64,000 nt of DNA from Escherichia coli (GTDB lineage Bacteria; Pseudomonadota; Gammaproteobacteria; Enterobacterales; Enterobacteriaceae). Positions 37,218 through 57,949 of this stretch are shown here, in pieces. The translations under genes and the position numbers were made by a program. Where the stretch lies: NCBI RefSeq assembly GCF_003790525.1, contig NZ_CP033635.1, one strand, 5' to 3'. The notes under the pieces are model-generated. The model was given only the letters and a program-made list of their open reading frames with translations. It made no database searches and was not told the DNA's origin. The stretch's first letter is position 1. Every line of letters begins with the position of its first letter.

Positions 37218-37255
37218 CTCGCCCCTCTGGGGAGAGGGTTAGGGTTAGGGGAACA
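37218..37255. repeat. G-rich 38-bp intergenic repeat, copy 1 (CTCGCCCCTCTGGGGAGAGGGTTAGGGTTAGGGGAACA)
   Basis: Near-identical (36/38) to a second copy at 50611-50648; contains the CCCTCT-GGGG-AGAGGG hairpin; sits between ypfG and the tktB 3' end. Confidence 0.6.
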
Positions 37256-40538: not shown

Positions 40539-42818
40539 ATGGATGACCAGTTAAAACAAAGTGCACTTGATTTCCATGAATTTCCAGTTCCAGGGAAAAT
40601 CCAGGTTTCTCCAACCAAGCCTCTGGCAACGCAGCGCGATCTGGCGCTGGCCTACTCACCAGGCGTTGCCGCACCTTGTCTTGAAATCGAAAAAGACCCG
40701 TTAAAAGCCTACAAATATACCGCGCGTGGTAACCTGGTGGCGGTGATCTCTAACGGTACGGCGGTGCTGGGGTTAGGCAACATTGGCGCGCTGGCAGGCA
40801 AACCGGTGATGGAAGGCAAGGGCGTTCTGTTTAAGAAATTCGCCGGGATTGATGTATTTGACATTGAAGTTGATGAACTCGACCCGGACAAATTTATTGA
40901 AGTCGTCGCCGCGCTTGAACCGACCTTCGGCGGCATCAACCTCGAAGACATTAAAGCGCCAGAATGTTTCTATATTGAACAGAAACTGCGCGAGCGGATG
41001 AATATTCCAGTATTCCACGACGATCAGCACGGCACGGCAATTATCAGCACTGCCGCCATCCTCAACGGATTGCGCGTGGTGGAGAAAAACATCTCCGACG
41101 TGCGGATGGTGGTTTCCGGCGCGGGTGCAGCAGCAATTGCCTGTATGAACCTGCTGGTGGCGCTGGGGCTGCAAAAACATAACATCGTGGTTTGTGATTC
41201 AAAAGGCGTTATCTATCAGGGCCGTGAGCCAAATATGGCGGAAACCAAAGCCGCATATGCGGTGGTGGATGACGGCAAACGTACCCTCGATGATGTGATT
41301 GAAGGTGCGGATATTTTCCTCGGCTGTTCCGGCCCGAAAGTGCTGACCCAGGAAATGGTGAAGAAAATGGCTCGGGCACCAATGATCCTGGCGCTGGCGA
41401 ATCCGGAACCGGAAATTCTGCCGCCGCTGGCGAAAGAAGTGCGTCCGGATGCCATCATCTGTACCGGCCGTTCCGACTACCCGAACCAGGTGAACAACGT
41501 CCTTTGCTTCCCGTTTATCTTCCGTGGCGCGCTGGACGTTGGCGCAACCGCCATCAACGAAGAGATGAAACTGGCGGCAGTACGCGCGATTGCAGAACTG
41601 GCCCATGCGGAACAGAGTGAAGTGGTGGCTTCAGCGTATGGCGATCAGGATCTGAGCTTTGGTCCGGAATACATCATTCCAAAACCGTTTGATCCGCGCT
41701 TGATCGTTAAGATCGCTCCTGCGGTGGCGAAAGCGGCGATGGAGTCGGGCGTGGCGACGCGTCCGATTGCTGATTTCGACGTCTACATCGACAAGCTGAC
41801 GGAGTTCGTTTACAAAACCAACCTGTTTATGAAGCCGATTTTCTCCCAGGCTCGCAAAGCGCCGAAGCGCGTAGTTCTGCCGGAAGGGGAAGAGGCGCGC
41901 GTTCTGCATGCCACTCAGGAATTGGTAACGCTGGGACTGGCGAAACCGATTCTTATTGGTCGTCCGAACGTGATCGAAATGCGCATTCAGAAACTGGGCT
42001 TGCAGATCAAGGCGGGCGTTGATTTTGAGATCGTCAATAACGAATCCGATCCGCGCTTTAAAGAGTACTGGACCGAATACTTCCAGATCATGAAGCGTCG
42101 CGGTGTCACTCAGGAGCAGGCGCAGCGTGCGCTGATCAGTAACCCGACAGTGATCGGCGCGATCATGGTTCAGCGTGGCGAAGCCGATGCAATGATTTGC
42201 GGTACGGTGGGCGATTATCATGAACACTTTAGCGTGGTGAAAAATGTCTTTGGTTATCGCGATGGCGTTCACACCGCAGGTGCCATGAACGCGCTGCTGT
42301 TGCCGAGTGGTAACACCTTTATTGCCGATACCTACGTCAATGATGAGCCTGATGCAGAAGAGCTGGCGGAGATCACCTTGATGGCGGCAGAAACTGTTCG
42401 TCGTTTTGGTATTGAACCGCGTGTGGCTCTGTTGTCGCACTCCAACTTTGGTTCTTCTGACTGCCCGTCGTCGAGCAAAATGCGTCAGGCGCTGGAACTG
42501 GTCAGGGAACGTGCGCCAGAACTGATGATTGATGGTGAAATGCACGGCGATGCAGCGCTGGTGGAAGCGATTCGCAACGACCGTATGCCGGACAGCCCTT
42601 TGAAAGGTTCCGCTAATATTCTGGTGATGCCGAACATGGAAGCTGCCCGCATTAGTTACAACTTACTGCGCGTTTCCAGCTCGGAAGGTGTGACTGTCGG
42701 TCCGGTGCTGATGGGCGTGGCGAAGCCGGTTCACGTGTTAACGCCGATCGCATCGGTACGTCGTATCGTCAACATGGTGGCGCTGGCCGTGGTTGAAGCG
42801 CAAACCCAACCGCTGTAA
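40539..42818 (+). CDS. maeB: NADP-dependent malic enzyme (malic enzyme domain plus PTA-like C-terminal domain)
   Basis: 759-aa ORF; divergent from talA. Confidence 0.95.
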
Positions 42819-43110: not shown

Positions 43111-43446
43111 ATGGATAAAGAACGCATCATTCAGGAATTTGTGCCCGGTAAACAGGTCACACTGGCGCATCTCATCGCGCATCCCGGCGAGGAACTGGCG
43201 AAGAAAATCGGCGTTCCGGATGCGGGCGCAATTGGCATTATGACGCTAACTCCCGGAGAAACGGCGATGATCGCCGGTGATTTAGCGCTGAAAGCTGCCG
43301 ATGTGCATATCGGTTTTCTCGACCGTTTTAGCGGCGCGCTGGTGATTTATGGCTCGGTGGGTGCAGTAGAAGAAGCGTTATCACAAACCGTCAGTGGTTT
43401 AGGTCGCTTATTAAATTATACGCTTTGTGAAATGACCAAAAGTTAA
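43111..43446 (+). CDS. eutS: Ethanolamine-utilisation microcompartment shell protein (BMC domain)
   Basis: Track ORF 43039-43446; the ATG at 43111 ([32 protein letters not shown]) gives 111 aa. Confidence 0.85.
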
Positions 43447-43458
43447 TACGAGGCATTC

Positions 43459-43938
43459 ATGAAACGAATTGCGTTTGTGGGTACCGTCGGGGCAGGAAAA
43501 ACAACGTTATTTAATGCGTTGCAGGGGAATTATACCCTCGCCAGAAAAACACAGGCCGTGGAATTTAATGATAAGGGCGATATTGATACGCCGGGTGAAT
43601 ATTTTAGCCATCCCCGCTGGTATCACGCCTTAATTACCACGCTACAGGATGTGGACATGCTGATCTATGTCCACGGCGCGAATGACCCGGAAAGTCGGTT
43701 GCCTGCCGGGTTGCTGGATATTGGCGTCAGCAAACGGCAAATCGCCGTCATCAGTAAAACGGACATGCCAGATGCTGACGTCGCCGCAACGCGAAAGTTA
43801 TTGCTTGAGACGGGCTTCGAAGAGCCGATTTTCGAGCTAAACAGCCACGACCCGCAAAGCGTGCAGCAACTGGTGGATTATCTGGCATCTCTCACCAAAC
43901 AGGAGGAAGCAGGTGAAAAAACTCATCACAGCGAATGA
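43459..43938 (+). CDS. eutP: Ethanolamine-utilisation P-loop protein (acetate kinase-like)
   Basis: 159-aa ORF with Walker A GTVGAGKTT. Confidence 0.9.
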   Translation: MKRIAFVGTVGAGKTTLFNALQGNYTLARKTQAVEFNDKGDIDTPGEYFSHPRWYHALITTLQDVDMLIYVHGANDPESRLPAGLLDIGVSKRQIAVISKTDMPDADVAATRKLLLETGFEEPIFELNSHDPQSVQQLVDYLASLTKQEEAGEKTHHSE

Positions 43939-44614
43939 TATTCGTGAAGCACACGCGCGCGGCGAACTGGCAATGTCCGTGGTTCTGCGCGCCAGCATTA
44001 TTACCCCGGAAGCTCGTGAAGTGGCTGATCTGTTGGGTTTTACCATCACCGAATGTGATGAATCGACTGCGGTAACGACGTCCGTTCCCGCCAGCGTGCC
44101 AGCCGATAAAACCGAAAGCCAGCGCATCCGCGAAACCATCATCGCCCAGCTACCGGAAGGCCAGTTTACCGAAAGCCTGGTCGCGCAGCTGATGGAAAAA
44201 GTGATGAAGGAAAAACAGTCACTGGAGCAGGGTGCAATGCAGCCGAGTTTCAAATCGGTGACCGGCAAAGGCGGCATCAAAGTGATTGATGGCAGCAGCG
44301 TCAAGTTTGGTCGTTTCGATGGCGCGGAACCGCACTGCGTAGGCTTGACTGATCTCGTGACCGGAGACGACGGCAGCAGTATGGCCGCTGGTTTCATGCA
44401 GTGGGAGAACGCCTTCTTTCCGTGGACCCTGAACTACGACGAAATCGACATGGTGCTGGAAGGGGAACTGCATGTTCGCCACGAAGGCGAAACTATGATC
44501 GCCAAAGCGGGCGATGTGATGTTTATCCCGAAAGGCTCCAGTATCGAATTTGGTACGACATCCAGCGTGAAATTCCTGTATGTCGCCTGGCCGGCTAACT
44601 GGCAATCCCTATGA
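43913..44614 (+). CDS. eutQ: Ethanolamine-utilisation cupin-domain protein
   Basis: 233-aa ORF; overlaps the eutP 3' end by 26 nt. Confidence 0.9.
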   Translation: MKKLITANDIREAHARGELAMSVVLRASIITPEAREVADLLGFTITECDESTAVTTSVPASVPADKTESQRIRETIIAQLPEGQFTESLVAQLMEKVMKEKQSLEQGAMQPSFKSVTGKGGIKVIDGSSVKFGRFDGAEPHCVGLTDLVTGDDGSSMAAGFMQWENAFFPWTLNYDEIDMVLEGELHVRHEGETMIAKAGDVMFIPKGSSIEFGTTSSVKFLYVAWPANWQSL

Positions 44615-45414
44615 AAGATTTCATCACCGAAGCATGGCTAAGAGCGAACCATACGCTCAGCGAAGGCGCAGAGATCCATCTCCCTGCGGACAGTCGCCTG
44701 ACGCCCTCTGCCCGGGAGTTACTGGAAAGCCGCCATCTGCGCATCAAGTTTATTGACGAGCAGGGCCGCCTGTTTGTTGACGATGAACAGCAGCAGCCGC
44801 AGCCCGTTCATGGGCTGACCAGTAGCGATGAACATCCGCAGGCGTGCTGCGAACTGTGCCGCCAGCCGGTGGCAAAAAAGCCGGATACGCTGACTCACCT
44901 GTCGGCGGAAAAAATGGTTGCCAAAAGCGATCCGCGCCTGGCTTTTCGCGCTGTTCTCGACAGCACCATTGCGCTGGCAGTGTGGCTGCAAATTGAACTG
45001 GCGGAACCGTGGCAGCCGTGGCTGGCGGATATCCGTTCGCGTCTTGGCAACATTATGCGTGCCGATGCGCTGGGGGAACCGCTGGCCTGCCAGGCGATTG
45101 TCGGGCTTTCTGACGAAGATCTGCATCGGCTTTCTCACCAGCCGCTGCGTTATCTCGACCACGATCATCTGGTGCCGGAAGCCAGCCACGGGCGCGATGC
45201 GGCGTTGCTAAATCTGCTACGCACCAAAGTGCGGGAAACCGAAACCGTAGCGGCGCAGGTCTTTATCACCCGCAGCTTTGAAGTATTACGCCCGGACATC
45301 TTGCAGGCGCTGAACCGCCTTTCCAGCACGGTCTACGTGATGATGATCCTGAGCGTAACGAAGCAGCCGCTAACGGTGAAGCAGATCCAACAACGACTGG
45401 GGGAAACGCAATGA
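44611..45414 (+). CDS. eutT: Ethanolamine-utilisation cob(I)alamin adenosyltransferase
   Basis: 267-aa ORF; ATGA overlap with eutQ. Confidence 0.9.
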
Positions 45415-46427
45415 TTATTGAACGTTGTCGTGAACTGGCGTTGCGAGCGCCCGCCAGAGTGGTTTTTCCGGATGCGTTAGATCAGCGTGTGCTGAAAGCT
45501 GCGCAATATTTACATCAACAAGGTCTGGCAACGCCCATTCTGGTCGCTAATCCGTTTGAACTTCGTCAGTTTGCGCTCAGTCATGGCGTAGCGATGGACG
45601 GGCTACAGGTGATTGATCCGCATGGCAACCTCGCAATGCGGGAAGAATTTGCTCATCGCTGGCTGGCCCGCGCGGGCGAAAAAACGCCGCCGGATGCGCT
45701 GGAAAAACTCACCGAACCGCTGATGTTCGCCGCCGCAATGGTCAGCGCCGGTAAAGCGGATGTCTGTATCGCGGGCAATCTCTCTTCCACGGCGAATGTG
45801 CTGCGTGCCGGATTACGCATTATTGGCTTGCAGCCAGGCTGTAAAACGCTCTCATCCATTTTCCTGATGCTGCCACAGTACAGCGGTCCGGCGTTGGGTT
45901 TTGCCGATTGCAGCGTGGTGCCACAGCCGACGGCGGCGCAGTTGGCGGATATCGCGCTTGCCAGCGCCGAAACCTGGCGCGCCATCACCGGAGAAGAACC
46001 GCGCGTGGCGATGCTGTCGTTTTCCAGCAACGGTAGTGCCCGTCACCCCTGCGTTGCCAACGTGCAGCAGGCGACAGAAATCGTCCGTGAGCGCGCACCA
46101 AAGCTGGTTGTCGATGGCGAGTTGCAGTTTGACGCCGCCTTCGTGCCGGAAGTGGCGGCGCAAAAAGCGCCTGCCAGCCCGCTACAAGGCAAGGCCAATG
46201 TGATGGTTTTTCCGTCGCTGGAAGCCGGAAATATTGGCTACAAAATCGCACAACGACTTGGCGGATATCGTGCCGTCGGGCCATTGATACAAGGACTTGC
46301 CGCGCCGATGCACGATCTCTCTCGTGGTTGTAGCGTGCAGGAAATTATCGAACTGGCGCTGGTGGCAGCTGTGCCGCGTCAGACAGAAGTGAACCGCGAA
46401 AGCAGTTTACAAACACTGGTTGAATGA
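45411..46427 (+). CDS. eutD: Ethanolamine-utilisation phosphotransacetylase
   Basis: 338-aa ORF, PTA-like; ATGA overlap with eutT. Confidence 0.9.
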
Positions 46428-46465
46428 ACGGTCCCGTTCTGGACCCTGATAAAGAGGAAAGCACA

Positions 46466-46759
46466 ATGGAAGCATTAGGAATGATCGAAACCCGGGGCCT
46501 GGTTGCACTGATTGAGGCTTCTGACGCGATGGTTAAAGCTGCGCGCGTCAAGCTGGTTGGTGTTAAGCAGATTGGCGGCGGCCTGTGTACTGCCATGGTT
46601 CGTGGTGATGTTGCAGCCTGTAAAGCCGCGACCGATGCAGGTGCCGCAGCGGCACAGCGTATCGGCGAGCTGGTATCTGTACACGTTATCCCGCGTCCGC
46701 ACGGCGACCTGGAAGAAGTGTTCCCGATCGGCCTGAAAGGCGATAGCAGCAACCTGTAA
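46466..46759 (+). CDS. eutM: Major BMC shell protein (hexamer)
   Basis: Track ORF 46424-46759; the ATG at 46466 ([28 protein letters not shown]) has an AAGAGGAAA RBS; 97 aa. Confidence 0.9.
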
Positions 46760-46865
46760 TCACCCTGTGTGACGTCGATTCGGGCGTCACGCTCTCTCCT
46801 TTTTCATTTTACCTTCTGCGGAGGGTAGGGGGAGCTTTTACCTGAAATACGCCACGGAGGCGGGT

Positions 46866-47153
46866 ATGAAACTGGCAGTCGTCACTGGACAAATTGTTTG
46901 TACCGTACGCCATCACGGACTGGCGCATGACAAATTGCTGATGGTGGAAATGATTGATCCACAAGGTAATCCTGACGGGCAATGCGCTGTCGCCATCGAC
47001 AATATTGGCGCGGGAACCGGGGAGTGGGTGTTGCTGGTGAGTGGCAGTTCCGCCCGCCAGGCGCATAAAAGCGAAACGTCACCGGTCGATCTGTGCGTGA
47101 TTGGCATCGTCGATGAGGTGGTGTCTGGCGGTCAGGTCATTTTCCACAAATAA
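46866..47153 (+). CDS. eutN: BMC vertex (pentamer) protein
   Basis: 95-aa ORF (MKLAVVTGQIVCTVRH). Confidence 0.9.
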   Translation: MKLAVVTGQIVCTVRHHGLAHDKLLMVEMIDPQGNPDGQCAVAIDNIGAGTGEWVLLVSGSSARQAHKSETSPVDLCVIGIVDEVVSGGQVIFHK

Positions 47154-47164
47154 GGCAGAACATC

Positions 47165-48568
47165 ATGAATCAACAGGATATTGAACAGGTGGTGAAAGCG
47201 GTACTGCTGAAAATGCAAAGCAGTGACACGCCGCCCGCCGCCGTTCATGAGATGGGCGTTTTCGCGTCCCTGGATGACGCCGTTGCGGCAGCCAAAGTCG
47301 CCCAGCAAGGGTTAAAAAGCGTGGCAATGCGCCAGTTAGCCATTGCTGCCATTCGTGAGGCAGGCGAAAAACACGCCAGAGATTTAGCGGAACTTGCCGT
47401 CAGTGAAACCGGCATGGGGCGCGTTGAAGATAAATTTGCCAAAAACGTCGCTCAGGCGCGCGGCACACCAGGCGTTGAGTGCCTCTCACCACAGGTGCTG
47501 ACCGGTGACAACGGCCTGACCCTGATTGAAAACGCGCCCTGGGGCGTGGTGGCTTCGGTGACGCCTTCCACTAACCCGGCGGCAACCGTAATTAACAACG
47601 CCATCAGCCTGATTGCCGCGGGCAACAGCGTCATTTTTGCCCCGCATCCGGCGGCGAAAAAAGTCTCCCAGCGGGCGATTACGCTGCTCAACCAGGCGAT
47701 TGTTGCCGCAGGCGGGCCGGAAAACTTACTGGTTACTGTGGCCAATCCGGATATCGAAACCGCGCAACGTTTGTTCAAGTTCCCGGGTATCGGCCTGCTG
47801 GTGGTGACCGGCGGCGAAGCGGTAGTGGAAGCGGCGCGTAAACACACCAATAAACGTCTGATTGCCGCAGGCGCTGGCAACCCGCCGGTAGTGGTGGATG
47901 AAACCGCCGACCTCGCCCGTGCTGCTCAGTCCATCGTCAAAGGCGCGTCTTTCGATAACAACATCATTTGTGCCGACGAAAAGGTACTGATTGTTGTTGA
48001 TAGCGTAGCCGATGAACTGATGCGTCTGATGGAAGGCCAGCATGCGGTGAAACTGACCGCAGAGCAGGCGCAGCAACTGCAATCGGTGTTGCTGAAAAAT
48101 ATCGACGAGTGCGGAAAAGGCACCGTCAGCCGTGACTGGGTTGGTCGCGATGCGGCGAAAATCGCGGCGGCAATCGGCCTTAAAGTTCCGGAACAAACGC
48201 GACTGCTGTTTGTAGAAACCACCGCAGAACATCCGTTTGCCGTGACCGAACTGATGATGCCGGTGCTGCCCGTCGTGCGCGTCGCCAACGTGGCGGATGC
48301 CATTGCGCTGGCGGTGAAACTGGAAGGCGGTTGCCACCACACGGCGGCAATGCACTCGCGCAATATCGAGAACATGAACCAGATGGCGAATGCCATTGAT
48401 ACCAGCATTTTCGTTAAGAACGGACCGTGCATTGCCGGGCTGGGGCTGGGCGGGGAAGGCTGGACCACCATGACCATCACCACGCCAACCGGTGAAGGGG
48501 TAACCAGCGCGCGGACGTTTGTCCGTCTGCGTCGCTGTGTATTAGTCGATGCGTTTCGCATTGTTTAA
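47165..48568 (+). CDS. eutE: CoA-acylating acetaldehyde dehydrogenase
   Basis: 467-aa aldehyde-dehydrogenase-family ORF with N-terminal BMC-targeting-like segment. Confidence 0.9.
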   Translation: MNQQDIEQVVKAVLLKMQSSDTPPAAVHEMGVFASLDDAVAAAKVAQQGLKSVAMRQLAIAAIREAGEKHARDLAELAVSETGMGRVEDKFAKNVAQARGTPGVECLSPQVLTGDNGLTLIENAPWGVVASVTPSTNPAATVINNAISLIAAGNSVIFAPHPAAKKVSQRAITLLNQAIVAAGGPENLLVTVANPDIETAQRLFKFPGIGLLVVTGGEAVVEAARKHTNKRLIAAGAGNPPVVVDETADLARAAQSIVKGASFDNNIICADEKVLIVVDSVADELMRLMEGQHAVKLTAEQAQQLQSVLLKNIDECGKGTVSRDWVGRDAAKIAAAIGLKVPEQTRLLFVETTAEHPFAVTELMMPVLPVVRVANVADAIALAVKLEGGCHHTAAMHSRNIENMNQMANAIDTSIFVKNGPCIAGLGLGGEGWTTMTITTPTGEGVTSARTFVRLRRCVLVDAFRIV

Positions 48569-48578
48569 GGAGTAACCG

Positions 48579-49415
48579 ATGGCGCACGATGAACAATGGC
48601 TCACCCCACGTCTGCAAACGGCGGCAACGCTGTGTAACCAGACGCCCGCCGCGACGGAATCTCCGCTGTGGCTGGGGGTGGATCTGGGCACCTGCGATGT
48701 GGTGTCGATGGTTGTCGACCGCGACGGTCTGCCGGTGGCGGTATGCCTCGACTGGGCCGATGTGGTCCGCGACGGCATCGTCTGGGATTTCTTCGGTGCG
48801 GTCACCATTGTTCGTCGCCATCTCGACACCCTCGAGCAGCAATTCGGTCGCCGTTTTAGCCATGCGGCGACCTCTTTTCCTCCAGGTACGGACCCGCGTA
48901 TTTCCATCAACGTGCTGGAGTCTGCCGGACTGGAAGTGAGCCATGTACTGGATGAGCCAACCGCAGTCGCGGATCTGCTGCAACTGGACAACGCCGGTGT
49001 AGTGGATATCGGCGGTGGCACTACTGGTATTGCCATCGTGAAAAAGGGCAAGGTGACGTACTCGGCGGATGAAGCGACCGGCGGACATCACATCTCTCTG
49101 ACTCTCGCCGGAAATCGTCGTATTTCGCTGGAAGAGGCAGAGCAGTACAAGCGCGGTCACGGTGAAGAGATTTGGCCCGCGGTGAAACCGGTGTACGAAA
49201 AAATGGCGGACATTGTCGCCCGGCATATTGAAGGGCAGGGCATTACGGATTTATGGCTGGCGGGCGGCTCTTGTATGCAACCGGGCGTGGCGGAACTGTT
49301 TCGCAAACAATTTCCGGCGTTACAGGTGCATTTACCGCAGCACAGTTTGTTTATGACCCCGCTGGCGATCGCCAGTAGCGGGCGAGAGAAAGCGGAGGGG
49401 CTATATGCAAAATGA
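48579..49415 (+). CDS. eutJ: Ethanolamine-utilisation chaperonin-like protein (actin/Hsp70 fold)
   Basis: 278-aa ORF. Confidence 0.9.
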   Translation: MAHDEQWLTPRLQTAATLCNQTPAATESPLWLGVDLGTCDVVSMVVDRDGLPVAVCLDWADVVRDGIVWDFFGAVTIVRRHLDTLEQQFGRRFSHAATSFPPGTDPRISINVLESAGLEVSHVLDEPTAVADLLQLDNAGVVDIGGGTTGIAIVKKGKVTYSADEATGGHHISLTLAGNRRISLEEAEQYKRGHGEEIWPAVKPVYEKMADIVARHIEGQGITDLWLAGGSCMQPGVAELFRKQFPALQVHLPQHSLFMTPLAIASSGREKAEGLYAK

Positions 49416-50592
49416 ATTGCAGACCGCGCTCTTTCAGGCGTTCGATACCCTGAATCTGCAACGGGTAAAAACATTTAGCGTTCCACCGGTGACGCTTTGC
49501 GGTCCGGGCGCGGTGAGCAGTTGTGGGCAGCAAGCGCAAACGCGTGGGCTGAAACATCTGTTCGTGATGGCAGACAGCTTTTTGCATCAGGCAGGGATGA
49601 CCGCCGGGCTGACACGTAGCCTGGCCGTTAAAGGTATCGCCATGACGCTCTGGCCATGTCCGGTGGGCGAACCATGCATCACCGACGTGTGTGCAGCCGT
49701 GGCGCAGTTGCGTGAATCAGGCTGTGACGGGGTGATTGCGTTTGGCGGCGGCTCGGTGCTGGATGCAGCAAAAGCCGTGGCGTTGCTGGTGACGAACCCG
49801 GATAGCACGCTGGCAGAGATGTCAGAAACCAGCGTTCTGCAACCGCGCCTGCCGTTGATTGCCATTCCGACTACCGCCGGAACCGGCTCTGAAACCACCA
49901 ACGTAACGGTGATTATCGATGCGGTGAGCGGGCGTAAGCAGGTGTTAGCCCATGCCTCGCTGATGCCGGATGTGGCGATTCTCGACGCCGCATTGACCGA
50001 AGGTGTGCCGTCGCATGTCACGGCGATGACTGGCATTGATGCGTTAACCCATGCCATTGAAGCGTACAGCGCGCTGAACGCCACACCATTTACCGACAGC
50101 CTGGCGATTGGCGCCATTGCGATGATTGGTCAATCGCTGCCGAAAGCGGTGGGCTACGGTCACGACCTTGCCGCGCGCGAGAGCATGTTGCTGGCTTCAT
50201 GTATGGCGGGAATGGCGTTTTCCAGTGCGGGGCTTGGGTTGTGCCACGCGATGGCGCATCAGCCAGGGGCGGCGCTGCATATTCCGCACGGTCTGGCGAA
50301 CGCTATGTTGCTGCCAACGGTAATGGAATTTAACCGGATGGTTTGTCGTGATCGGTTTAGTCAGATTGGCCGGGCGCTGAGAACTAAAAAATCCGACGAT
50401 CGTGACGCTATTAACGCGGTAAGTGAGCTGATTGCGGAAGTCGGGATTGGTAAACGACTGGGCGATATTGGTGCGACATCTGCGCATTACGGCGCATGGG
50501 CGCAGGCCGCGCTGGAAGATATTTGTCTGCGCAGCAACCCGCGTACCGCCAGCCTGGAGCAGATTATTGGTCTGTATGCTGCGGCGCAATAA
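49405..50592 (+). CDS. eutG: Iron-containing alcohol dehydrogenase
   Basis: 395-aa Fe-ADH-family ORF; 11-nt overlap with eutJ. Confidence 0.9.
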   Translation: MQNELQTALFQAFDTLNLQRVKTFSVPPVTLCGPGAVSSCGQQAQTRGLKHLFVMADSFLHQAGMTAGLTRSLAVKGIAMTLWPCPVGEPCITDVCAAVAQLRESGCDGVIAFGGGSVLDAAKAVALLVTNPDSTLAEMSETSVLQPRLPLIAIPTTAGTGSETTNVTVIIDAVSGRKQVLAHASLMPDVAILDAALTEGVPSHVTAMTGIDALTHAIEAYSALNATPFTDSLAIGAIAMIGQSLPKAVGYGHDLAARESMLLASCMAGMAFSSAGLGLCHAMAHQPGAALHIPHGLANAMLLPTVMEFNRMVCRDRFSQIGRALRTKKSDDRDAINAVSELIAEVGIGKRLGDIGATSAHYGAWAQAALEDICLRSNPRTASLEQIIGLYAAAQ

Positions 50593-50610
50593 AAGTGTAC
50601 GGACAGTCCC

Positions 50611-50648
50611 CTCGCCCCTTTGGGGAGAGGGTTAGGGTGAGGGGAACA
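50611..50648. repeat. G-rich 38-bp intergenic repeat, copy 2 (CTCGCCCCTTTGGGGAGAGGGTTAGGGTGAGGGGAACA)
   Basis: 36/38 identical to 37218-37255; followed by partial inverted copies (ccctcacccc at 50674-50683, gtgaggg at 50701-50707) in the 169-bp eutG-eutH spacer. Confidence 0.6.
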
Positions 50649-50761
50649 GAGTCGCTCCGGTGCAAACAATTACCCTCACCCCGGTCCCTCGGCTTCCAGA
50701 GTGAGGGAAAAACCCACTTTCAGCATTGGCAATAAATAACAACTAACAGGGAGTAAAGGCG

Positions 50762-51988
50762 ATGGGAATTAACGAAATCATCATGTACATCATGATGTTC
50801 TTTATGCTGATAGCTGCCGTAGACAGGATCCTGTCGCAGTTCGGCGGTTCTGCTCGTTTCCTCGGTAAGTTCGGTAAAAGTATCGAAGGATCCGGCAGTC
50901 AGTTCGAAGAAGGCTTTATGGCAATGGGCGCTTTGGGCCTGGCGATGGTTGGTATGACCGCGCTGGCACCTGTTCTGGCCCACGTACTCGGACCGGTGAT
51001 TATCCCGGTTTACGAAATGCTCGGCGCAAACCCGTCAATGTTCGCCGGAACACTGCTGGCGTGCGATATGGGCGGCTTCTTCCTCGCCAAAGAGTTGGCG
51101 GGCGGCGACGTAGCAGCGTGGCTATACTCTGGATTAATTCTCGGGTCGATGATGGGGCCAACGATTGTGTTTTCCATTCCGGTGGCGCTCGGCATTATCG
51201 AACCTTCTGACCGTCGTTATCTGGCGCTCGGCGTGCTGGCGGGCATTGTGACCATTCCGATTGGCTGTATTGCCGGTGGTCTGGTGGCTATGTACTCCGG
51301 TGTGCAGATCAACGGTCAGCCAGTGGAATTCACCTTTGCGCTGATCCTGATGAACATGATCCCGGTACTTATCGTTGCGGTGCTGGTGGCGCTGGGGCTG
51401 AAATTCATCCCGGAAAAAATGATCAACGGCTTCCAGATCTTCGCCAAATTCCTCGTTGCATTGATCACCCTCGGTCTTGCCGCTGCGGTAGTGAAATTCC
51501 TCCTTGGCTGGGAACTGATCCCGGGCCTTGATCCTATCTTTATGGCCCCTGGCGATAAACCCGGTGAAGTGATGCGCGCCATTGAAGTTATCGGCTCGAT
51601 CTCCTGCGTTCTGTTAGGGGCGTATCCGATGGTGCTGCTGCTGACTCGCTGGTTTGAAAAACCGCTGATGAGTGTCGGTAAGGTGCTGAATATGAACAAT
51701 ATAGCGGCAGCCGGCATGGTGGCAACGCTTGCCAACAACATCCCGATGTTTGGCATGATGAAGCAGATGGATACCCGCGGCAAAGTCATCAACTGTGCCT
51801 TCGCCGTTTCCGCTGCTTTCGCCCTGGGCGACCATTTAGGCTTCGCGGCTGCCAACATGAACGCCATGATCTTCCCGATGATTGTCGGCAAGCTGATCGG
51901 CGGCGTCACGGCGATTGGCGTGGCGATGATGCTGGTACCTAAAGAAGACGCGAGCGCGGCTAAAACCGAAGCGGAGGCGCAATCGTGA
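50762..51988 (+). CDS. eutH: Ethanolamine permease/facilitator
   Basis: 408-aa polytopic membrane ORF. Confidence 0.9.
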   Translation: MGINEIIMYIMMFFMLIAAVDRILSQFGGSARFLGKFGKSIEGSGSQFEEGFMAMGALGLAMVGMTALAPVLAHVLGPVIIPVYEMLGANPSMFAGTLLACDMGGFFLAKELAGGDVAAWLYSGLILGSMMGPTIVFSIPVALGIIEPSDRRYLALGVLAGIVTIPIGCIAGGLVAMYSGVQINGQPVEFTFALILMNMIPVLIVAVLVALGLKFIPEKMINGFQIFAKFLVALITLGLAAAVVKFLLGWELIPGLDPIFMAPGDKPGEVMRAIEVIGSISCVLLGAYPMVLLLTRWFEKPLMSVGKVLNMNNIAAAGMVATLANNIPMFGMMKQMDTRGKVINCAFAVSAAFALGDHLGFAAANMNAMIFPMIVGKLIGGVTAIGVAMMLVPKEDASAAKTEAEAQS

Positions 51989-53388
51989 ACACTCGCCAGC
52001 TACTGAGCGTCGGTATCGATATCGGCACCACCACCACCCAGGTGATTTTCTCCCACCTGGAGCTGGTTAACCGTGCGGCGGTGTCGCAGGTGCCGCGCTA
52101 CGAATTCATCAAACGCGAAATTAGCTGGCAAAGCCCGGTGTTCTTTACCCCTGTCGATAAACAGGGTGGTTTAAAAGAAGCGGAACTGAAAACCTTAATC
52201 CTGGATCAATATCAGGCTGCGGGCATTGCGCCGGAAAGTGTTGATTCTGGTGCCATCATCATCACCGGTGAAAGCGCGAAAACCCGCAACGCTCGCCCGG
52301 CGGTGATGACGCTCTCCCAGTCGCTGGGCGATTTTGTCGTCGCCAGCGCCGGGCCGCATCTCGAATCCGTGATCGCCGGTCACGGTGCCGGGGCGCAAAC
52401 TCTTTCTGAACAACGGCTGTGTCGGGTACTGAATATCGATATCGGCGGTGGCACTGCGAACTACGCCCTGTTCGATGCCGGAAAAATCAGCGGCACCGCC
52501 TGCCTCAACGTCGGCGGTCGCCTGCTGGAAACCGACAGCCAGGGGCGCGTGGTTTACGCTCATAAACCGGGGCAGATGATTGTGGATGAGTGCTTCGGCG
52601 CAGGCACTGACGCCCGTTCGCTGACCGGCGCGCAGCTGGTGCAGGTTACCCGCCGGATGGCAGAGCTGATTGTCGAAGTGATTGACGGAACGCTTTCGCC
52701 GCTCGCGCAGGCATTGATGCAAACCGGTTTGCTGCCCGTAGGTGTTACGCCCGAAATCATTACGCTTTCTGGCGGCGTTGGCGAATGTTATCGCCACCAG
52801 CCCGCCGACCCGTTCTGTTTTGCCGATATTGGCCCGCTTCTGGCAACGGCGCTGCATGACCATCCGCGCCTGCGTGAGATGAACGTGCAGTTTCCGGCGC
52901 AAACCGTGCGCGCCACGGTGATTGGCGCGGGTGCACATACCCTTTCGCTCTCTGGCAGCACAATCTGGCTGGAGGGCGTACAACTGCCGCTGCGCAACTT
53001 GCCGGTGGCGATCCCAATTGATGAAAAGGATCTGGTGAGTGCCTGGCAACAGGCGCTGATTCAGCTGGATCTTGATCCTAAAACTGACGCGTACGTGCTG
53101 GCGCTTCCCGCCTCGCTGCCTGTGCGTTACGCCGCGGTACTGACGGTCATCAACGCGTTGGTCGATTTCGTCGCGCGTTTTCCGAATCCGCATCCCCTGC
53201 TGGTGGTGGCCGGGCAGGACTTTGGTAAAGCTCTGGGCATGTTGTTGCGCCCACAGCTACAACAACTCCCGTTGGCAGTCATTGACGAAGTGATTGTCCG
53301 CGCGGGGGACTATATCGACATTGGTACGCCTCTTTTTGGCGGATCGGTTGTGCCGGTGACGGTGAAATCACTCGCATTTCCTTCCTGA
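51985..53388 (+). CDS. eutA: Ethanolamine ammonia-lyase reactivating factor
   Basis: 467-aa ORF; ATGA overlap with eutH. Confidence 0.9.
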   Translation: MNTRQLLSVGIDIGTTTTQVIFSHLELVNRAAVSQVPRYEFIKREISWQSPVFFTPVDKQGGLKEAELKTLILDQYQAAGIAPESVDSGAIIITGESAKTRNARPAVMTLSQSLGDFVVASAGPHLESVIAGHGAGAQTLSEQRLCRVLNIDIGGGTANYALFDAGKISGTACLNVGGRLLETDSQGRVVYAHKPGQMIVDECFGAGTDARSLTGAQLVQVTRRMAELIVEVIDGTLSPLAQALMQTGLLPVGVTPEIITLSGGVGECYRHQPADPFCFADIGPLLATALHDHPRLREMNVQFPAQTVRATVIGAGAHTLSLSGSTIWLEGVQLPLRNLPVAIPIDEKDLVSAWQQALIQLDLDPKTDAYVLALPASLPVRYAAVLTVINALVDFVARFPNPHPLLVVAGQDFGKALGMLLRPQLQQLPLAVIDEVIVRAGDYIDIGTPLFGGSVVPVTVKSLAFPS

Positions 53389-53399
53389 GGGAACGACTT

Positions 53400-54761
53400 A
53401 TGAAACTAAAGACCACATTGTTCGGCAATGTATATCAGTTTAAGGATGTAAAAGAGGTGCTGGCTAAAGCCAACGAACTGCGTTCGGGGGATGTGCTGGC
53501 GGGCGTTGCTGCGGCAAGCTCACAGGAGCGCGTGGCGGCAAAGCAGGTGTTGTCGGAAATGACCGTAGCGGACATCCGCAATAATCCGGTGATTGCCTAT
53601 GAAGATGACTGCGTGACGCGGCTGATTCAGGACGATGTTAACGAAACGGCCTACAACCAGATTAAAAACTGGAGCATCAGCGAACTGCGTGAGTATGTGC
53701 TGAGCGATGAAACCAGCGTGGACGACATTGCCTTTACCCGCAAAGGGCTGACCTCGGAAGTGGTAGCGGCGGTAGCGAAGATTTGCTCCAACGCGGACCT
53801 GATCTACGGCGCGAAGAAAATGCCGGTGATCAAAAAGGCCAATACCACCATCGGTATTCCGGGCACCTTTAGCGCCCGCTTGCAGCCAAACGATACCCGT
53901 GACGATGTGCAAAGTATCGCCGCGCAAATCTACGAAGGGCTTTCCTTCGGGGTGGGCGATGCGGTGATCGGCGTTAACCCGGTGACTGACGACGTGGAAA
54001 ACTTAAGCCGCGTGTTGGATACCATCTATGGCGTGATCGACAAATTCAACATCCCAACTCAGGGCTGCGTACTGGCGCACGTCACCACCCAGATCGAAGC
54101 GATTCGTCGCGGCGCACCGGGCGGGCTGATTTTCCAGAGTATTTGCGGCAGCGAAAAAGGGCTGAAAGAGTTTGGCGTGGAGCTGGCGATGCTCGACGAA
54201 GCGCGCGCAGTGGGTGCAGAGTTTAACCGTATCGCCGGGGAAAACTGCCTCTACTTCGAAACCGGACAAGGTTCGGCGCTGTCCGCTGGCGCTAACTTCG
54301 GCGCTGACCAGGTGACGATGGAAGCGCGTAACTATGGGCTGGCGCGTCATTACGATCCGTTTATCGTCAACACCGTGGTCGGTTTTATTGGGCCGGAGTA
54401 TCTCTACAACGACCGCCAGATTATCCGCGCGGGCTTAGAAGATCACTTTATGGGCAAGCTGAGCGGCATCTCTATGGGCTGTGACTGCTGCTACACCAAC
54501 CACGCTGACGCTGACCAGAACCTCAACGAAAACCTGATGATCCTGCTCGCCACCGCAGGCTGTAACTACATCATGGGGATGCCGCTGGGTGATGACATCA
54601 TGCTCAACTACCAGACTACGGCCTTCCACGACACCGCCACTGTGCGTCAGTTACTCAACCTGCGCCCGTCACCGGAGTTTGAACGCTGGCTGGAAAGCAT
54701 GGGCATTATGGCAAACGGTCGCCTGACCAAACGGGCGGGCGATCCGTCACTGTTCTTCTGA
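53400..54761 (+). CDS. eutB: Ethanolamine ammonia-lyase large subunit
   Basis: 453-aa ORF starting 11 bp after the eutA stop. Confidence 0.95.
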   Translation: MKLKTTLFGNVYQFKDVKEVLAKANELRSGDVLAGVAAASSQERVAAKQVLSEMTVADIRNNPVIAYEDDCVTRLIQDDVNETAYNQIKNWSISELREYVLSDETSVDDIAFTRKGLTSEVVAAVAKICSNADLIYGAKKMPVIKKANTTIGIPGTFSARLQPNDTRDDVQSIAAQIYEGLSFGVGDAVIGVNPVTDDVENLSRVLDTIYGVIDKFNIPTQGCVLAHVTTQIEAIRRGAPGGLIFQSICGSEKGLKEFGVELAMLDEARAVGAEFNRIAGENCLYFETGQGSALSAGANFGADQVTMEARNYGLARHYDPFIVNTVVGFIGPEYLYNDRQIIRAGLEDHFMGKLSGISMGCDCCYTNHADADQNLNENLMILLATAGCNYIMGMPLGDDIMLNYQTTAFHDTATVRQLLNLRPSPEFERWLESMGIMANGRLTKRAGDPSLFF

Positions 54762-54781
54762 TGACGCGGAGATAACACATC

Positions 54782-55669
54782 ATGGATCAAAAACAGATTG
54801 AAGAAATTGTACGCAGCGTGATGGCGTCAATGGGACAAGCGGCCCCCGCGCCGTCAGAAGCAAAGTGCGCCACCACCACCTGTACGACACCAGTGACCTC
54901 GGAAAGCTGCGCGCTGGATTTAGGTTCTGCGGAAGCAAAAGCGTGGATTGGTGTGGAAAACCCGCATCGCGCAGACGTATTAACAGAACTGCGTCGCAGC
55001 ACCGTGGCCCGCGTTTGTACCGGTCGTGCCGGTCCGCGTCCGCGTACCCAGGCGTTGCTGCGTTTCCTGGCCGATCACTCTCGTTCGAAAGATACCGTAC
55101 TGAAAGAAGTGCCGGAAGAGTGGGTGAAAGCGCAGGGCTTGCTGGAAGTCCGCTCTGAAATTAGCGACAAAAATCTCTACCTGACTCGTCCGGATATGGG
55201 CCGCCGCCTGTGTGCAGAAGCTGTTGAAGCGCTGAAAGCGCAGTGTGTTGCCAATCCGGACGTGCAGGTCGTTATTTCTGATGGCCTGTCAACTGATGCG
55301 ATCACCGTGAACTACGAAGAGATCCTGCCACCGCTGATGGCGGGCCTGAAACAGGCCGGGCTGAAAGTCGGTACGCCATTCTTTGTTCGTTATGGTCGCG
55401 TGAAGATTGAAGATCAGATCGGTGAGATCCTCGGCGCGAAAGTGGTGATCCTGCTGGTGGGGGAACGCCCGGGATTAGGGCAGTCAGAAAGCCTCTCCTG
55501 CTACGCCGTTTACTCGCCGCGTATTGCAACCACCGTTGAGGCCGATCGTACCTGTATCTCTAACATTCACCAGGGCGGCACGCCGCCGGTTGAAGCCGCA
55601 GCCGTCATTGTGGATTTGGCGAAACGTATGCTGGAGCAGAAAGCATCCGGCATCAACATGACCCGATAA
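54782..55669 (+). CDS. eutC: Ethanolamine ammonia-lyase small subunit
   Basis: 295-aa ORF. Confidence 0.95.
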
Positions 55670-55678
55670 GGAGGCATC

Positions 55679-56338
55679 ATGCCAGCTTTAGATTTGATTC
55701 GACCGTCGGTAACCGCCATGCGGGTGATTGCCTCCGTTAACGCCGAATTTGCACGTGAACTGAAATTGCCGCCGCATATTCGTAGCCTCGGGCTGATTTC
55801 TGCTGATTCAGATGACGTCACCTACATTGCGGCTGACGAAGCGACCAAGCAGGCGATGGTCGAAGTGGTATATGGTCGCTCGCTGTATGCGGGCGCTGCA
55901 CACGGCCCGTCACCGACTGCCGGTGAGGTGCTGATTATGCTGGGTGGGCCAAACCCGGCGGAAGTGCGTGCTGGTCTGGATGCGATGGTTGCGCATATTG
56001 AAAATGGCGCTGCTTTCCAGTGGGCTAATGACGCAGAAAATACAGCCTTCCTGGCACATGTCGTTTCGCGTACCGGTTCTTATCTCTCATCAACCGCCGG
56101 GATCACGCCTGGCGATCCGATGGCGTATCTGGTGGCACCGCCGCTGGAAGCGACCTACGGCATTGATGCAGCGTTGAAATCTGCCGACGTGCAGCTGGTG
56201 ACCTATGTCCCGCCACCGTCTGAAACCAACTACTCGGCAGCATTTTTAACCGGTAGCCAGGCCGCGTGTAAAGCAGCCTGTAACGCCTTTACCGATGCAG
56301 TGCTGGAAATCGCGCGTAATCCAATCCAGCGTGCGTAA
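55679..56338 (+). CDS. eutL: BMC shell protein (tandem-BMC trimer)
   Basis: 219-aa ORF. Confidence 0.9.
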
Positions 56339-56350
56339 CGGAGGTTGCCG

Positions 56351-56851
56351 ATGATCAATGCACTGGGATTGCTGGAAGTGGACGGCATGGTCGCCGCGAT
56401 AGATGCAGCTGATGCCATACTCAAAGCAGCTAACGTTCGTCTGCTCAGTCATGAAGTGCTTGACCCTGGTCGCCTAACGCTGGTGGTGGAAGGCGATCTG
56501 GCGGCGTGTCGTGCGGCGCTGGACGCAGGTTGTGCTGCCGCGATGCGTACCGGGCGTGTCATCAGCCGTAAGGAGATCGGTCGGCCAGACGATGACACCC
56601 AGTGGCTGGTTACTGGCTTTAACCGCCAGCCGAAGCAACCCGTAAAGGAACCCGACGCGCCAGTTATCGTCGCGGAATCTGCTGACGAGTTGTTGGCGCT
56701 GTTAACATCAGTACGTCAGGGAATGACGGCAGGAGAAGTGGCTGCCCACTTTGGCTGGCCGCTGGAAAAAGCCAGAAATGCGCTCGAACAGCTCTTTTCT
56801 GCCGGGACGTTACGTAAACGCAGTAGTCGTTACCGTCTCAAGCCCCATTAA
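56351..56851 (+). CDS. eutK: BMC shell protein with C-terminal nucleic-acid-binding-like domain
   Basis: Track ORF starts at TTG 56345; the ATG at 56351 (MINALGLLEVDGMVAAIDAADA) has a GGAGG RBS; 166 aa. Confidence 0.85.
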   Translation: MINALGLLEVDGMVAAIDAADAILKAANVRLLSHEVLDPGRLTLVVEGDLAACRAALDAGCAAAMRTGRVISRKEIGRPDDDTQWLVTGFNRQPKQPVKEPDAPVIVAESADELLALLTSVRQGMTAGEVAAHFGWPLEKARNALEQLFSAGTLRKRSSRYRLKPH

Positions 56852-56896
56852 CCTGTCGGAGGTGCCGGGTGTCCTACAACACCCGGCATTAACATC

Positions 56897-57949
56897 ATGA
56901 AAAAGACCCGTACAGCCAATTTGCACCATCTTTATCATGAACCCTTACCCGAAAACCTGAAGCTCACGCCGAAGGTCGAAGTGGATAATGTTCATCAACG
57001 ACAGACAACGGATGTCTATGAACATGCTTTGACAATTACCGCCTGGCAGCAGATTTACGATCAGCTGCATCCGGGCAAGTTTCATGGTGAATTTACGGAA
57101 ATTCTACTCGATGATATTCAGGTTTTTCGTGAATACACTGGTCTGGCGCTGCGTCAGTCGTGCCTGGTCTGGCCGAACTCGTTCTGGTTTGGCATTCCGG
57201 CGACGCGCGGTGAGCAGGGATTTATCGGTTCGCAATGTCTGGGAAGCGCAGAAATTGCGACGCGCCCGGGTGGAACCGAGTTTGAATTAAGTACGCCGGA
57301 CGATTACACGATCCTGGGCGTAGTGCTTTCTGAAGATGTCATCACTCGTCAGGCTAACTTTTTGCATAATCCGGATCGGGTATTACATATGCTGCGTAGC
57401 CAGTCGGCGTTGGAAGTGAAAGAGCAGCATAAAGCCGCGCTGTGGGGCTTTGTCCAACAGGCGCTGGCGACATTTTGCGAGAACCCGGAAAATCTTCATC
57501 AGCCTGCTGTGCGTAAAGTGCTGGGGGATAATTTGCTCATGGCGATGGGGGCGATGCTGGAAGAAGCGCAGCCAATGGTGACGGCGGAAAGCATCAGTCA
57601 TCAGAGTTACCGTCGATTGCTTTCCCGCGCCCGTGAATATGTGCTGGAAAACATGTCTGAACCGGTAACGGTGTTGGAGTTGTGCAATCAATTGCATGTC
57701 AGCCGCCGCACGCTACAAAACGCGTTTCACGCTATTTTAGGCATTGGCCCAAACGCGTGGCTGAAACGCATTCGCCTGAACGCCGTACGCCGCGAACTGA
57801 TAAGCCCGTGGTCGCAAAGCACAACGGTAAAAGACGCCGCCATGCAGTGGGGATTCTGGCATCTGGGGCAATTTGCCACGGATTACCAGCAGCTGTTTGC
57901 CGAGAAGCCGTCACTGACGCTGCATCAGCGGATGCGGGAGTGGGGGTGA
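56897..57949 (+). CDS. eutR: AraC-family transcriptional activator of the eut operon
   Basis: 350-aa ORF with C-terminal AraC-type HTH. Confidence 0.9.

Follow-up and report, generated by a model that had tools for sequence, protein, structure and literature searches.

An uninterrupted 17-gene eut operon with an unoccupied IntZ-island attachment core at the eutA–eutB junction in Escherichia coli

The window analysed here, a stretch of 64 kb of Escherichia coli DNA, contains all 17 eut genes on the + strand between positions 43111 and 57949. On the basis of the ORF listing, the translations and the NCBIfam matches, the series eutSPQTDMNEJGHABCLKR is uninterrupted and each gene is full length. 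It is flanked by maeB upstream and hemF/amiA downstream. The genes are as follows.

43111..43446, + strand: eutS, shell protein (NF012012, 247 bits, positions 1-111 of 111)
43459..43938, + strand: eutP (NF012011, 352 bits)
43913..44614, + strand: eutQ (NF012001, 498 bits)
44611..45414, + strand: eutT, corrinoid adenosyltransferase (NF011595, 570 bits)
45411..46427, + strand: eutD, phosphotransacetylase (NF007233, 410 bits; named pta in SC516)
46466..46759, + strand: eutM, major shell protein (NF012018, 212 bits, residues 15-111 of a longer ORF; start per SC516 annotation)
46866..47153, + strand: eutN, shell vertex protein (NF011992, 210 bits)
47165..48568, + strand: eutE, acetaldehyde dehydrogenase (NF011927, 739 bits)
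48579..49415, + strand: eutJ (NF011660, 400 bits)
49405..50592, + strand: eutG, alcohol dehydrogenase (NF011998, 888 bits)
50762..51988, + strand: eutH, ethanolamine permease (NF011665, 872 bits)
51985..53388, + strand: eutA, ethanolamine ammonia-lyase reactivase, 467 aa, GTG start, TGA stop (NF007991, 1070 bits, positions 1-467 of 467)
53400..54761, + strand: eutB, ethanolamine ammonia-lyase large subunit, 453 aa, ATG start (NF011649, 665 bits)
54782..55669, + strand: eutC, lyase small subunit (NF003971, 339 bits)
55679..56338, + strand: eutL, shell protein (NF011934, 401 bits)
56351..56851, + strand: eutK, shell protein (NF012010, 360 bits; start per SC516 annotation)
56897..57949, + strand: eutR, AraC-type activator, final operon gene (NF007522, 788 bits, positions 1-350 of 350)

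The NCBIfam matches identify the 17 ORFs as EutS, P, Q, T, D, M, N, E, J, G, H, A, B, C, L, K and R, with scores far over the curated cut-offs, and the models are covered essentially end to end; EutC alone has an N-terminal extension past its model. Translation gives one terminal stop per ORF, and the intergenic gaps, from -26 to 169 nt, leave no room for a hidden insertion. The signature lyase, EutB + EutC, and the reactivase EutA directly upstream all score above the cut-offs (NF011649, NF003971 and NF007991) and are encoded in the order eutA-eutB-eutC. The five shell proteins EutS, EutM, EutN, EutL and EutK are likewise above the cut-offs of their family-specific models. The one-strand order S-P-Q-T-D-M-N-E-J-G-H-A-B-C-L-K-R, with the AraC-type activator EutR in last place, is that of the 17-gene operon and agrees with the PGAP annotation of E. 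coli SC516. The initial annotation had described 17 contiguous eut genes on one strand from 43111 to 57949, and the ORF listing and NCBIfam bear this out.

The operon is identical to the PGAP-annotated eut operons of E. coli SC516 and SMS-3-5, and the window fits the SC516 / SMS-3-5 lineage. The 17-gene (EUT1-type) eut operon of Salmonella enterica and E. coli has the same gene set and order (for Salmonella, taken from its DNA sequence), with eutR last and the same 11-nt spacer between eutA and eutB. The flanking genes maeB and hemF are likewise shared with other E. coli eut loci. Nothing substantive differs between the window and this known operon. The spacer between eutG and eutH carries a boxC-like repeat in the window and REP elements in K-12.

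The eutA stop is at 53388 and eutB starts at 53400, the 11-bp separation already read from the ORFs. The spacer (53389-53399, 11 nt, + strand) is GGGAACGACTT, and a Shine-Dalgarno-like GAGGGA of eutB (53387-53392) straddles the eutA stop codon. The last 45 bp of the junction, spacer included, are identical in 33 of 35 species representatives. One further feature overlaps this point.

53381..53388, + strand: 8-bp crossover core CTTCCTGA, a single unoccupied copy overlapping the eutA stop codon; duplicated around islands elsewhere

The same junction is occupied in E. coli K-12, as had been stated in the initial annotation. In K-12 J53, yffS through yffL and intZ (6,801 bp) lie between eutA and eutB, and MG1655 carries the same element, CPZ-55. 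The insertion lies exactly after the eutA TGA (equivalent to 53388/53389) and has CTTCCTGA at both ends; the same 8-bp duplication at CPZ-55 has been reported as TCAGGAAG on the other strand (PMC6379469). The K-12 flanks are the same as the window up to the eutA TGA and from GGGAACGACTT-ATG on, and EutB is the identical protein (WP_000769961.1), whereas only K-12 has the 6,801-bp insert, oriented against the operon, and a second copy of CTTCCTGA. The proposed comparison with the K-12 flanks and the CPZ-55 site thus shows K-12 arms that match the window and a K-12 eutA that does not abut eutB.

A second island occupies the same nucleotide in strain Z1323CEC0004, with the same CTTCCTGA repeat at both ends. 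Its cargo includes IS1, ISVsa5, murI, gadC, an AlpA regulator and an intZ homologue, and its similarity to CPZ-55 is confined to the integrase end (86% over 1.4 kb) and to 63 bp at the opposite end. The eutA/eutB junction has been called a 'prophage insertion hot spot' (U71 prophage, Dadswell et al. 2019; PMC6652756), and the position and core of the IntZ-type islands found there, including that of Z1323CEC0004, are those of the empty site in the window. What these islands have in common is limited to an intZ homologue and short ends, with cargo that varies; the window has no island. We propose that a family of IntZ (P4-like tyrosine integrase) islands uses CTTCCTGA at the eutA stop to attach to the chromosome. 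In K-12 one member, the 6.8-kb cryptic CPZ-55, has integrated there, pointing against the operon; in the strain of the window none has.

The window does not show two CTTCCTGA copies bracketing foreign DNA; a single copy stands at 53381-53388, and the extended site TTCCTTCCTGAGGGAACG occurs just once in the 64 kb. Neither CPZ-55 nor the Z1323CEC0004 island has a BLAST match anywhere in the 64-kb window, no intZ (P4-like tyrosine integrase gene) is present next to eutB, and there is no ORF between 53388 and 53400. With these searches and the gaps of the operon, a prophage elsewhere inside the eut genes of the window, which would have spoken against the earlier reading, is absent. Over 81 bp, the junction is identical to that of the K-12-lineage isolate O16:H48 PG20180054, which lacks CPZ-55, and to the K-12 arms (the site rebuilt from attL-left and attR-right), as an unoccupied attB should be.

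The distribution of the junction was compared among complete E. coli genomes, and most of them share it. It is contiguous in 4,964 of the 5,423 genomes having a match to a 2-kb query and in 4,962 of the 5,421 having a match to a 111-bp query, that is, in about 4,962 (~91.5%) of 5,426 complete genomes. The eutA-eutB adjacency is not a matter of chance, given the adjacency of the genes and an identity of at least 99% over the 111-bp junction in most E. coli genomes. Full-length CPZ-55 is present in 213 complete E. coli genomes, which among the matches listed are K-12 laboratory derivatives; ~204 further genomes match it partly, among the matches listed mostly through an intZ homologue at ~80-90% identity. 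Outside this set, eutA, the 11-nt spacer and eutB are found in all 35 species representatives, from several enterobacterial genera, and in six further loci including S. enterica. In total, 41 loci from other species were examined, most of them from Citrobacter, Klebsiella, Salmonella and Escherichia, and none is interrupted. An uninterrupted junction is both the commoner and the ancestral state, the latter as had been suggested with reference to Salmonella and many E. coli isolates, and CPZ-55 is a minority insertion.

The window almost certainly carries the standard enterobacterial 17-gene EUT1-type microcompartment operon in its ancestral, unoccupied state, with an empty IntZ-island attachment core, a continuous operon and predicted use of ethanolamine. 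Nothing found contradicts its reading as an intact, unoccupied eut operon. Two alternatives bear on this reading. The operon might look intact and yet be functionally dead through a regulatory lesion or a missense change, so that the missing prophage would have no phenotypic meaning. Other eut lesions do occur in E. coli: eutR is frameshifted in Z1323CEC0004, and in strain 102651 IS903B rearrangements have left both eutA and eutB truncated. In the window, however, none of the 17 ORFs is shortened and their family models are covered by the matches, the SC516 locus, which is identical, has no gene marked as a pseudogene by PGAP, and EutB is the K-12 protein; we consider a dead operon very unlikely. 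Still slighter is the chance that the window is a revertant, its site having once held an IntZ-type island that was then lost by precise excision. Such loss leaves no scar and makes restored and never-occupied sites look alike; PG20180054 combines K-12 Eut protein alleles with the very junction of the window, and one W3110 laboratory stock is eut+ (PMC11334477). Against this, the 15-kb operon is matched in one piece by all 25 of the genomes listed at 100% identity (SC516 and SMS-3-5 among them), the junction is contiguous in ~91.5% of E. coli genomes and in all of the other species examined, and parsimony favours a site that was never occupied.

Published work indicates what continuity of the operon may mean for expression. 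A promoter upstream of eutS, P1, drives all of the eut genes, and the last gene, eutR, has only a weak promoter of its own, P2 (PMC5821096, PMC10433801). In BW25113, eutS and eutR are induced but eutB is not, and microcompartments are not formed (PMC7617246); scarless removal of the prophage from this strain restores growth on ethanolamine as nitrogen source (PMC11334477). In the window, no terminator-like site was found on the + strand between eutA and eutB. Given an unbroken operon, transcripts started at the EutR-dependent promoter in front of eutS could run through eutA into eutBCLK and eutR, and with such read-through the strain is predicted to use ethanolamine when B12 is available. The read-through transcript, the ethanolamine/B12-inducible expression from P1 and the Eut+ phenotype are suggested for this strain by analogy with Salmonella and E. 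coli (PMC5821096, PMC11334477, PMC10433801). A strain of the SC516 / SMS-3-5 lineage should accordingly be ethanolamine-positive, unlike most K-12 laboratory stocks.

The uninterrupted eutA-eutB junction is correctly identified but already known. The CPZ-55 site, its target duplication, the 'hot spot' status and the recovery of ethanolamine use on prophage removal are all in the literature (PMC6379469, PMC6652756, PMC11334477, PMC7617246), and the earlier judgement that this is a strain-level point and no new system holds. For this gut-relevant pathway K-12 is the exception, a point of use in annotation and metabolic modelling but of textbook level.

A block of ~200 nt at the junction, 53303..53500, is nearly invariant at synonymous sites across enterobacterial genera and is tightest at 53350-53431. 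It takes in ~28 codons at the end of eutA, the spacer and ~33 codons at the start of eutB, with the island attachment core inside. Only this block, with the attachment site at its centre, could matter scientifically.

Identity to the window in the block is 0.983 across 30 non-Escherichia loci and extends ~100 nt on each side of the junction; no other stretch of the operon as sampled, from eutD to eutR, is as conserved, and the block persists in loci picked through EutA alone. The other 11 sampled eut gene starts have values of 0.80-0.91, the next-best window has 0.926 and the operon median is 0.834. Common synonymous variants affect 6 of 59 degenerate codons in the block versus 573 of 836 elsewhere in eutA + eutB (p = 2.6e-19).

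Several known types of element were looked for. Rfam gave no match at gathering score over the 64 kb and none up to E = 10 for 53150-53650. As P4-type integrases usually target tRNA genes, a tRNA-like target was sought, and ARAGORN found no tRNA or tmRNA at the junction. Two overlapping ORFs, one antisense at 53279-53428 (TTG start) and one from an internal ATG at 53377 after AGGAAGG, are mechanical and do not span the block. At the junction, neither a sigma-70 promoter inside the operon nor a terminator on the + strand was found, the counts being no better than in shuffles, and a sigma-54-like TGGC..TTGT, picked out by eye, has no GC at -12 and was discarded. The published eut CsrA site is in the eutS leader, not at the junction (PMC10433801). 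Gene conversion through long attP homology was also rejected, the island arms and the end of eutA sharing only ~20 degenerate bp. Distant EutA homologues (47-55% identity) could not serve for covariation: their junctions are not homologous, two of the three having no eutB downstream and the third a spacer of 19 nt.

As a single sequence the block folds no better than shuffles (z = -0.37 for the + strand and -1.5 for the - strand). RNAalifold on 15 diverse sequences gives a covariation term of only -0.5, and the two 'compensatory' pairs it shows trace to a single lineage and are disrupted elsewhere. Pairing is only slightly more frequent at invariant than at variable wobble sites (p about 0.02-0.03). 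One local structure is predicted.

53372..53396, + strand: weak predicted mRNA hairpin in which UUUCCUU (53377-53383) pairs with GAGGGAA (53387-53393), with the eutA stop at the loop

Its minimum free energy is -6.2 kcal/mol for the -30..+10 segment (ViennaRNA), and the stem is invariant, so that it offers no covariation.

The block may be the ordinary drop in synonymous change near gene starts or at translationally coupled junctions, with no discrete element, a serious possibility that stops somewhat short of probable. Eyre-Walker and Bulmer reportedly established in 1993 that synonymous rates are lowered at enterobacterial gene starts, which counts for this explanation, as do the absence of significant RNA structure in both folds and the values of other eut junctions, which are also somewhat above gene interiors (eutH start 0.91, eutA start 0.88, eutC start 0.88). 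Against it, the block is an extreme outlier in identity, ~100 nt to each side, and in its depletion of synonymous variants. More tentatively, the block may be a cis-acting nucleic-acid element, so far undescribed, kept across Escherichia, Salmonella, Citrobacter, Klebsiella and related genera; we regard this as possible but rather doubtful.

The most plausible role for such an element would be that of a translational operator or coupling region setting EutB output through the UUUCCUU/GAGGGAA hairpin around the eutA stop, which, as folded, would sequester the eutB Shine-Dalgarno; the block could also be the target of a trans-acting RNA or protein. Were the block a real regulatory element, the signature enzyme of the Eut microcompartment would have a new point of control, and the choice of insertion hot spot a reason. 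The extreme conservation of the block would explain why IntZ-type islands chose exactly this spot, much as other integrases adopt tRNA genes as attachment sites.

The ORF listing and translation of the window revealed 17 co-directional ORFs on the plus strand between 43111 and 57949, identified with NCBIfam as EutS, EutP, EutQ, EutT, EutD, EutM, EutN, EutE, EutJ, EutG, EutH, EutA, EutB, EutC, EutL, EutK and EutR, in this order. Their scores are well over the curated cut-offs and the family models are covered essentially end to end; EutC is the only one with an N-terminal extension past its model. Each of the 17 ORFs has one terminal stop, and the intergenic gaps range from -26 to 169 nt, leaving no space for a concealed insertion. 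The coordinates in the initial annotation, with the eutA stop at 53388 and the eutB start at 53400, are all right. The main features are as follows.

40539-42818, maeB, upstream of the eut operon
51985-53388, plus strand, eutA, GTG start and TGA stop
eutA-eutB spacer, 11 nt, GGGAACGACTT
53400-54761, plus strand, eutB
downstream of the eut operon, minus strand, hemF and amiA

The initial annotation stated that the cryptic prophage CPZ-55 splits eutA and eutB in K-12. This is the case in K-12 J53 (L001 5230-12030), where the insert measures 6,801 bp and the order is eutA, a small hypothetical ORF, yffS, yffR, yffQ, yffP, yffO, yffN, yffM, yffL, intZ and eutB, the yff genes and intZ lying on the strand opposite to the eut genes. 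Anchored alignments of the window with the K-12 flanks, a comparison that the annotation had suggested, place the insertion point directly 3' of the eutA TGA. The left junction (...CATTTCCTTCCTGA/ATGCGG...) and the right junction (...GATTCTTCCTGA/GGGAACGACTTATG...) show that the 8-bp crossover core CTTCCTGA is duplicated in K-12, in agreement with Ramisetty and Sudhakari 2019 (PMC6379469). There is one copy of the core in the window, at 53381-53388, and the extended site TTCCTTCCTGAGGGAACG is also unique within it. BLAST of CPZ-55 and of a second island from the same site against the 64-kb window gave no match.

A 2-kb query across the junction was matched in 5,423 of the 5,426 complete E. coli genomes, with one contiguous place in 4,964; for a 111-bp query, the corresponding numbers are 5,421 and 4,962. 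The eutA/eutB junction is uninterrupted in about 91.5% of the complete genomes, and the window thus represents the common state, as had been proposed for many E. coli isolates. A full-length CPZ-55, with coverage of at least 80%, is present in 213 genomes, and its identity is at least 99% in 212 of these; its carriers among the matches listed are K-12 laboratory derivatives, for example MG1655, DHB4, MC1061, J53 and BW25113-type strains. About 204 more genomes have a partial match, among those listed mostly an intZ homologue with about 80-90% identity.

Strain Z1323CEC0004 (L003 8381-20032), in which eutR is frameshifted, carries an island of 11.6 kb inserted at the very nucleotide used by CPZ-55 and with the same core repeat. 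IS1, ISVsa5, murI and gadC are found on it, as are an intZ homologue and a regulator of the AlpA family, and its similarity to CPZ-55 is confined to the integrase end plus 63 bp at the opposite end. In strain 102651 (L005 15844-27830), a related island is scrambled by IS903B, copies of which inverted part of it, and eutA and eutB are truncated. The genes found in these two non-K-12 islands include murI, gadC, a decarboxylase pseudogene, the AlpA regulator and several IS elements. The genes of CPZ-55 itself include one for a P4-type integrase and yffO, for a 'terminase small subunit-like' protein; together with the AlpA regulator of the related island, this gene set presumably resembles phage-inducible chromosomal islands or satellites more than a decayed full prophage. 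The eutA/eutB position has been termed a "prophage insertion hot spot", with a different prophage there in UPEC U71 (Dadswell et al. 2019, PMC6652756).

GTDB species representatives were scanned with a degenerate pattern covering EutB codons 1-17. The 35 loci that it matched belong to several Escherichia species and to the genera Citrobacter, Klebsiella, Salmonella, Yokenella, Pluralibacter, Intestinirhabdus and Pseudocitrobacter. Each has the 3' end of eutA up to the stop codon, then an 11-nt spacer and directly the eutB ATG; apparent frameshifts interrupt the tblastn EutA match in two assemblies. The arrangement is identical in six further loci picked by EutA protein similarity alone (77-90% identity), including S. 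enterica. On these comparisons, the uninterrupted state is ancestral and the K-12 interruption derived, and the reading of the initial annotation, like its observation, was right: a strain-level point that describes the majority state.

The same junction would also result if the site had once been occupied and the element precisely excised. Strain PG20180054 (O16:H48, mouse gut; L006 3987-3999) is of the K-12 lineage; its Eut protein alleles are those of K-12, CPZ-55 is missing entirely, and its scar-free junction equals that of the window along 81 bp. Precise excision would fit this, and a W3110 stock has likewise been reported to be eut+ (PMC11334477). Over 64 kb, no more than five positions separate the window from strain SC516 (chicken liver, China), and among the matches listed its 15-kb eut operon has 100.0% identity to SMS-3-5, which we take to belong to phylogroup F, and to 24 other complete genomes; in the eutA-eutB region, the identity is 97-98% for most other E. 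coli. Because all close relatives are uninterrupted, parsimony speaks against excision and favours a site never occupied in the window's own lineage.

Transcription of the entire Salmonella eut gene set starts at P1, a promoter upstream of eutS that is activated by EutR with ethanolamine and adenosylcobalamin; eutR, the last gene, has its own weak constitutive promoter, P2 (PMC5821096, PMC10433801). Full induction therefore needs read-through of the whole operon, which the opposed 6.8-kb insert would interrupt. This is supported by strain BW25113, where eutS and eutR are induced, eutB is not and no microcompartments form (PMC7617246), and by scarless removal of the prophage, after which growth with ethanolamine as nitrogen source was regained (PMC11334477). 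In the window, read-through from eutA to eutB should be unobstructed. Since nothing lies between the two genes and no plus-strand terminator-like site was found there, the transcript and an Eut+ phenotype are predicted from the observed gene content and empty site.

The biology of an intact eut operon with an empty site is ordinary and already published in detail, and the only lead worth further work is a conserved block around the junction. The profile of eutA and eutB has a sharp nucleotide-diversity trough at about 53303-53500 (-97 to +100 from the eutB ATG), tightest at about -50 to +31 (53350-53431), the single most conserved stretch in what was sampled of the operon, from about eutD to eutR. 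In 30 non-Escherichia loci, its identity to the window is 0.983, compared with 0.80-0.91 for the other 11 sampled gene starts, 0.926 for the next-best 198-nt window and a median of 0.834. It is near-invariant at synonymous sites in Escherichia, Salmonella, Citrobacter, Klebsiella, Yokenella and others: 6 of 59 degenerate codons have a common synonymous variant versus 573 of 836 in the remainder of eutA and eutB (Fisher p = 2.6e-19). The last 45 bp up to the eutB ATG are identical in 33 of 35 species, with EutA proteins only 82-93% identical. The search pattern restricted nothing beyond the amino-acid sequence of EutB residues 1-17 and cannot account for wobble-site or upstream conservation; the sample is still biased, and loci picked via EutA alone were therefore checked. 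The block is again better conserved than its flanks. In loci with EutA 47-55% identical, beyond this group, the junction is not conserved.

Identity of the block and its flanks in loci picked via EutA alone.
S. enterica, L042 (EutA 90%): block 0.985; flanks 0.83 (eutA side), 0.89 (eutB side)
Phytobacter, L047 (EutA 87%): block 0.964; flanks 0.79 (eutA side), 0.82 (eutB side)
L044, L046, L045, L043 (EutA 77-87%): block 0.86-0.92; flanks 0.73-0.85

Synonymous change is reduced near enterobacterial gene starts, a general effect reported by Eyre-Walker and Bulmer (1993). The signal may in part be explained by this, but within the eut operon the block is an outlier in its extent. Gene conversion from the islands was rejected, as the similarity between their arms and the eutA end is limited to about 20 degenerate bp. 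The block has no Rfam match, tRNA-like gene, coextensive alternative ORF or unusual folding; covariation support for a structure is absent, and its invariant wobble sites have a weak excess of pairing.

As a working reading, of less than even probability, the block may be an undescribed cis-acting element controlling eutB expression. In a weak predicted hairpin (-6.2 kcal/mol), the loop is at the eutA stop and UUUCCUU pairs with GAGGGAA, the Shine-Dalgarno-like sequence of eutB. Sequestration of the Shine-Dalgarno sequence around an upstream stop is the classic layout of translational coupling; this hairpin covers only about 25 nt of the block. The island attachment core lies within the tightest part, about 15 nt upstream of the block midpoint, and it is plausible that IntZ-type elements came to use this site for its invariance, in the way that tRNA genes serve other integrases as attachment sites.

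Two adjacent terminator-like hairpins, GTTGGC-TTTA-GCCAGC and CGAAC-GCA-GTTCG, are found on the minus strand at 53459-53486, inside the block. The stem of the former never varies; both variable sites are in its loop, one of them the most variable position of the block.

The strongest terminator-like hairpin of the operon (46767-46792, plus strand; 10 pairs followed by TCTCTCCTTT) lies between eutM and eutN, in the least conserved 60-nt window (identity 0.587). It is directly 3' of eutM, which encodes the major shell protein, and from its position could be an internal attenuator raising EutM relative to the downstream genes. The eutG-eutH spacer (50593-50761) contains what we read as a boxC-like G-rich repeat, GGGGAGAGGGTTAGGGTGAGGGG, present twice in the window (second copy at 37229-37251). 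The K-12 spacer has two REP/BIME-type repeats instead and is 216 nt long, compared with 169 nt here. The boxC-like repeat probably accounts for the median of seven match places per genome obtained with the 15-kb eut query.
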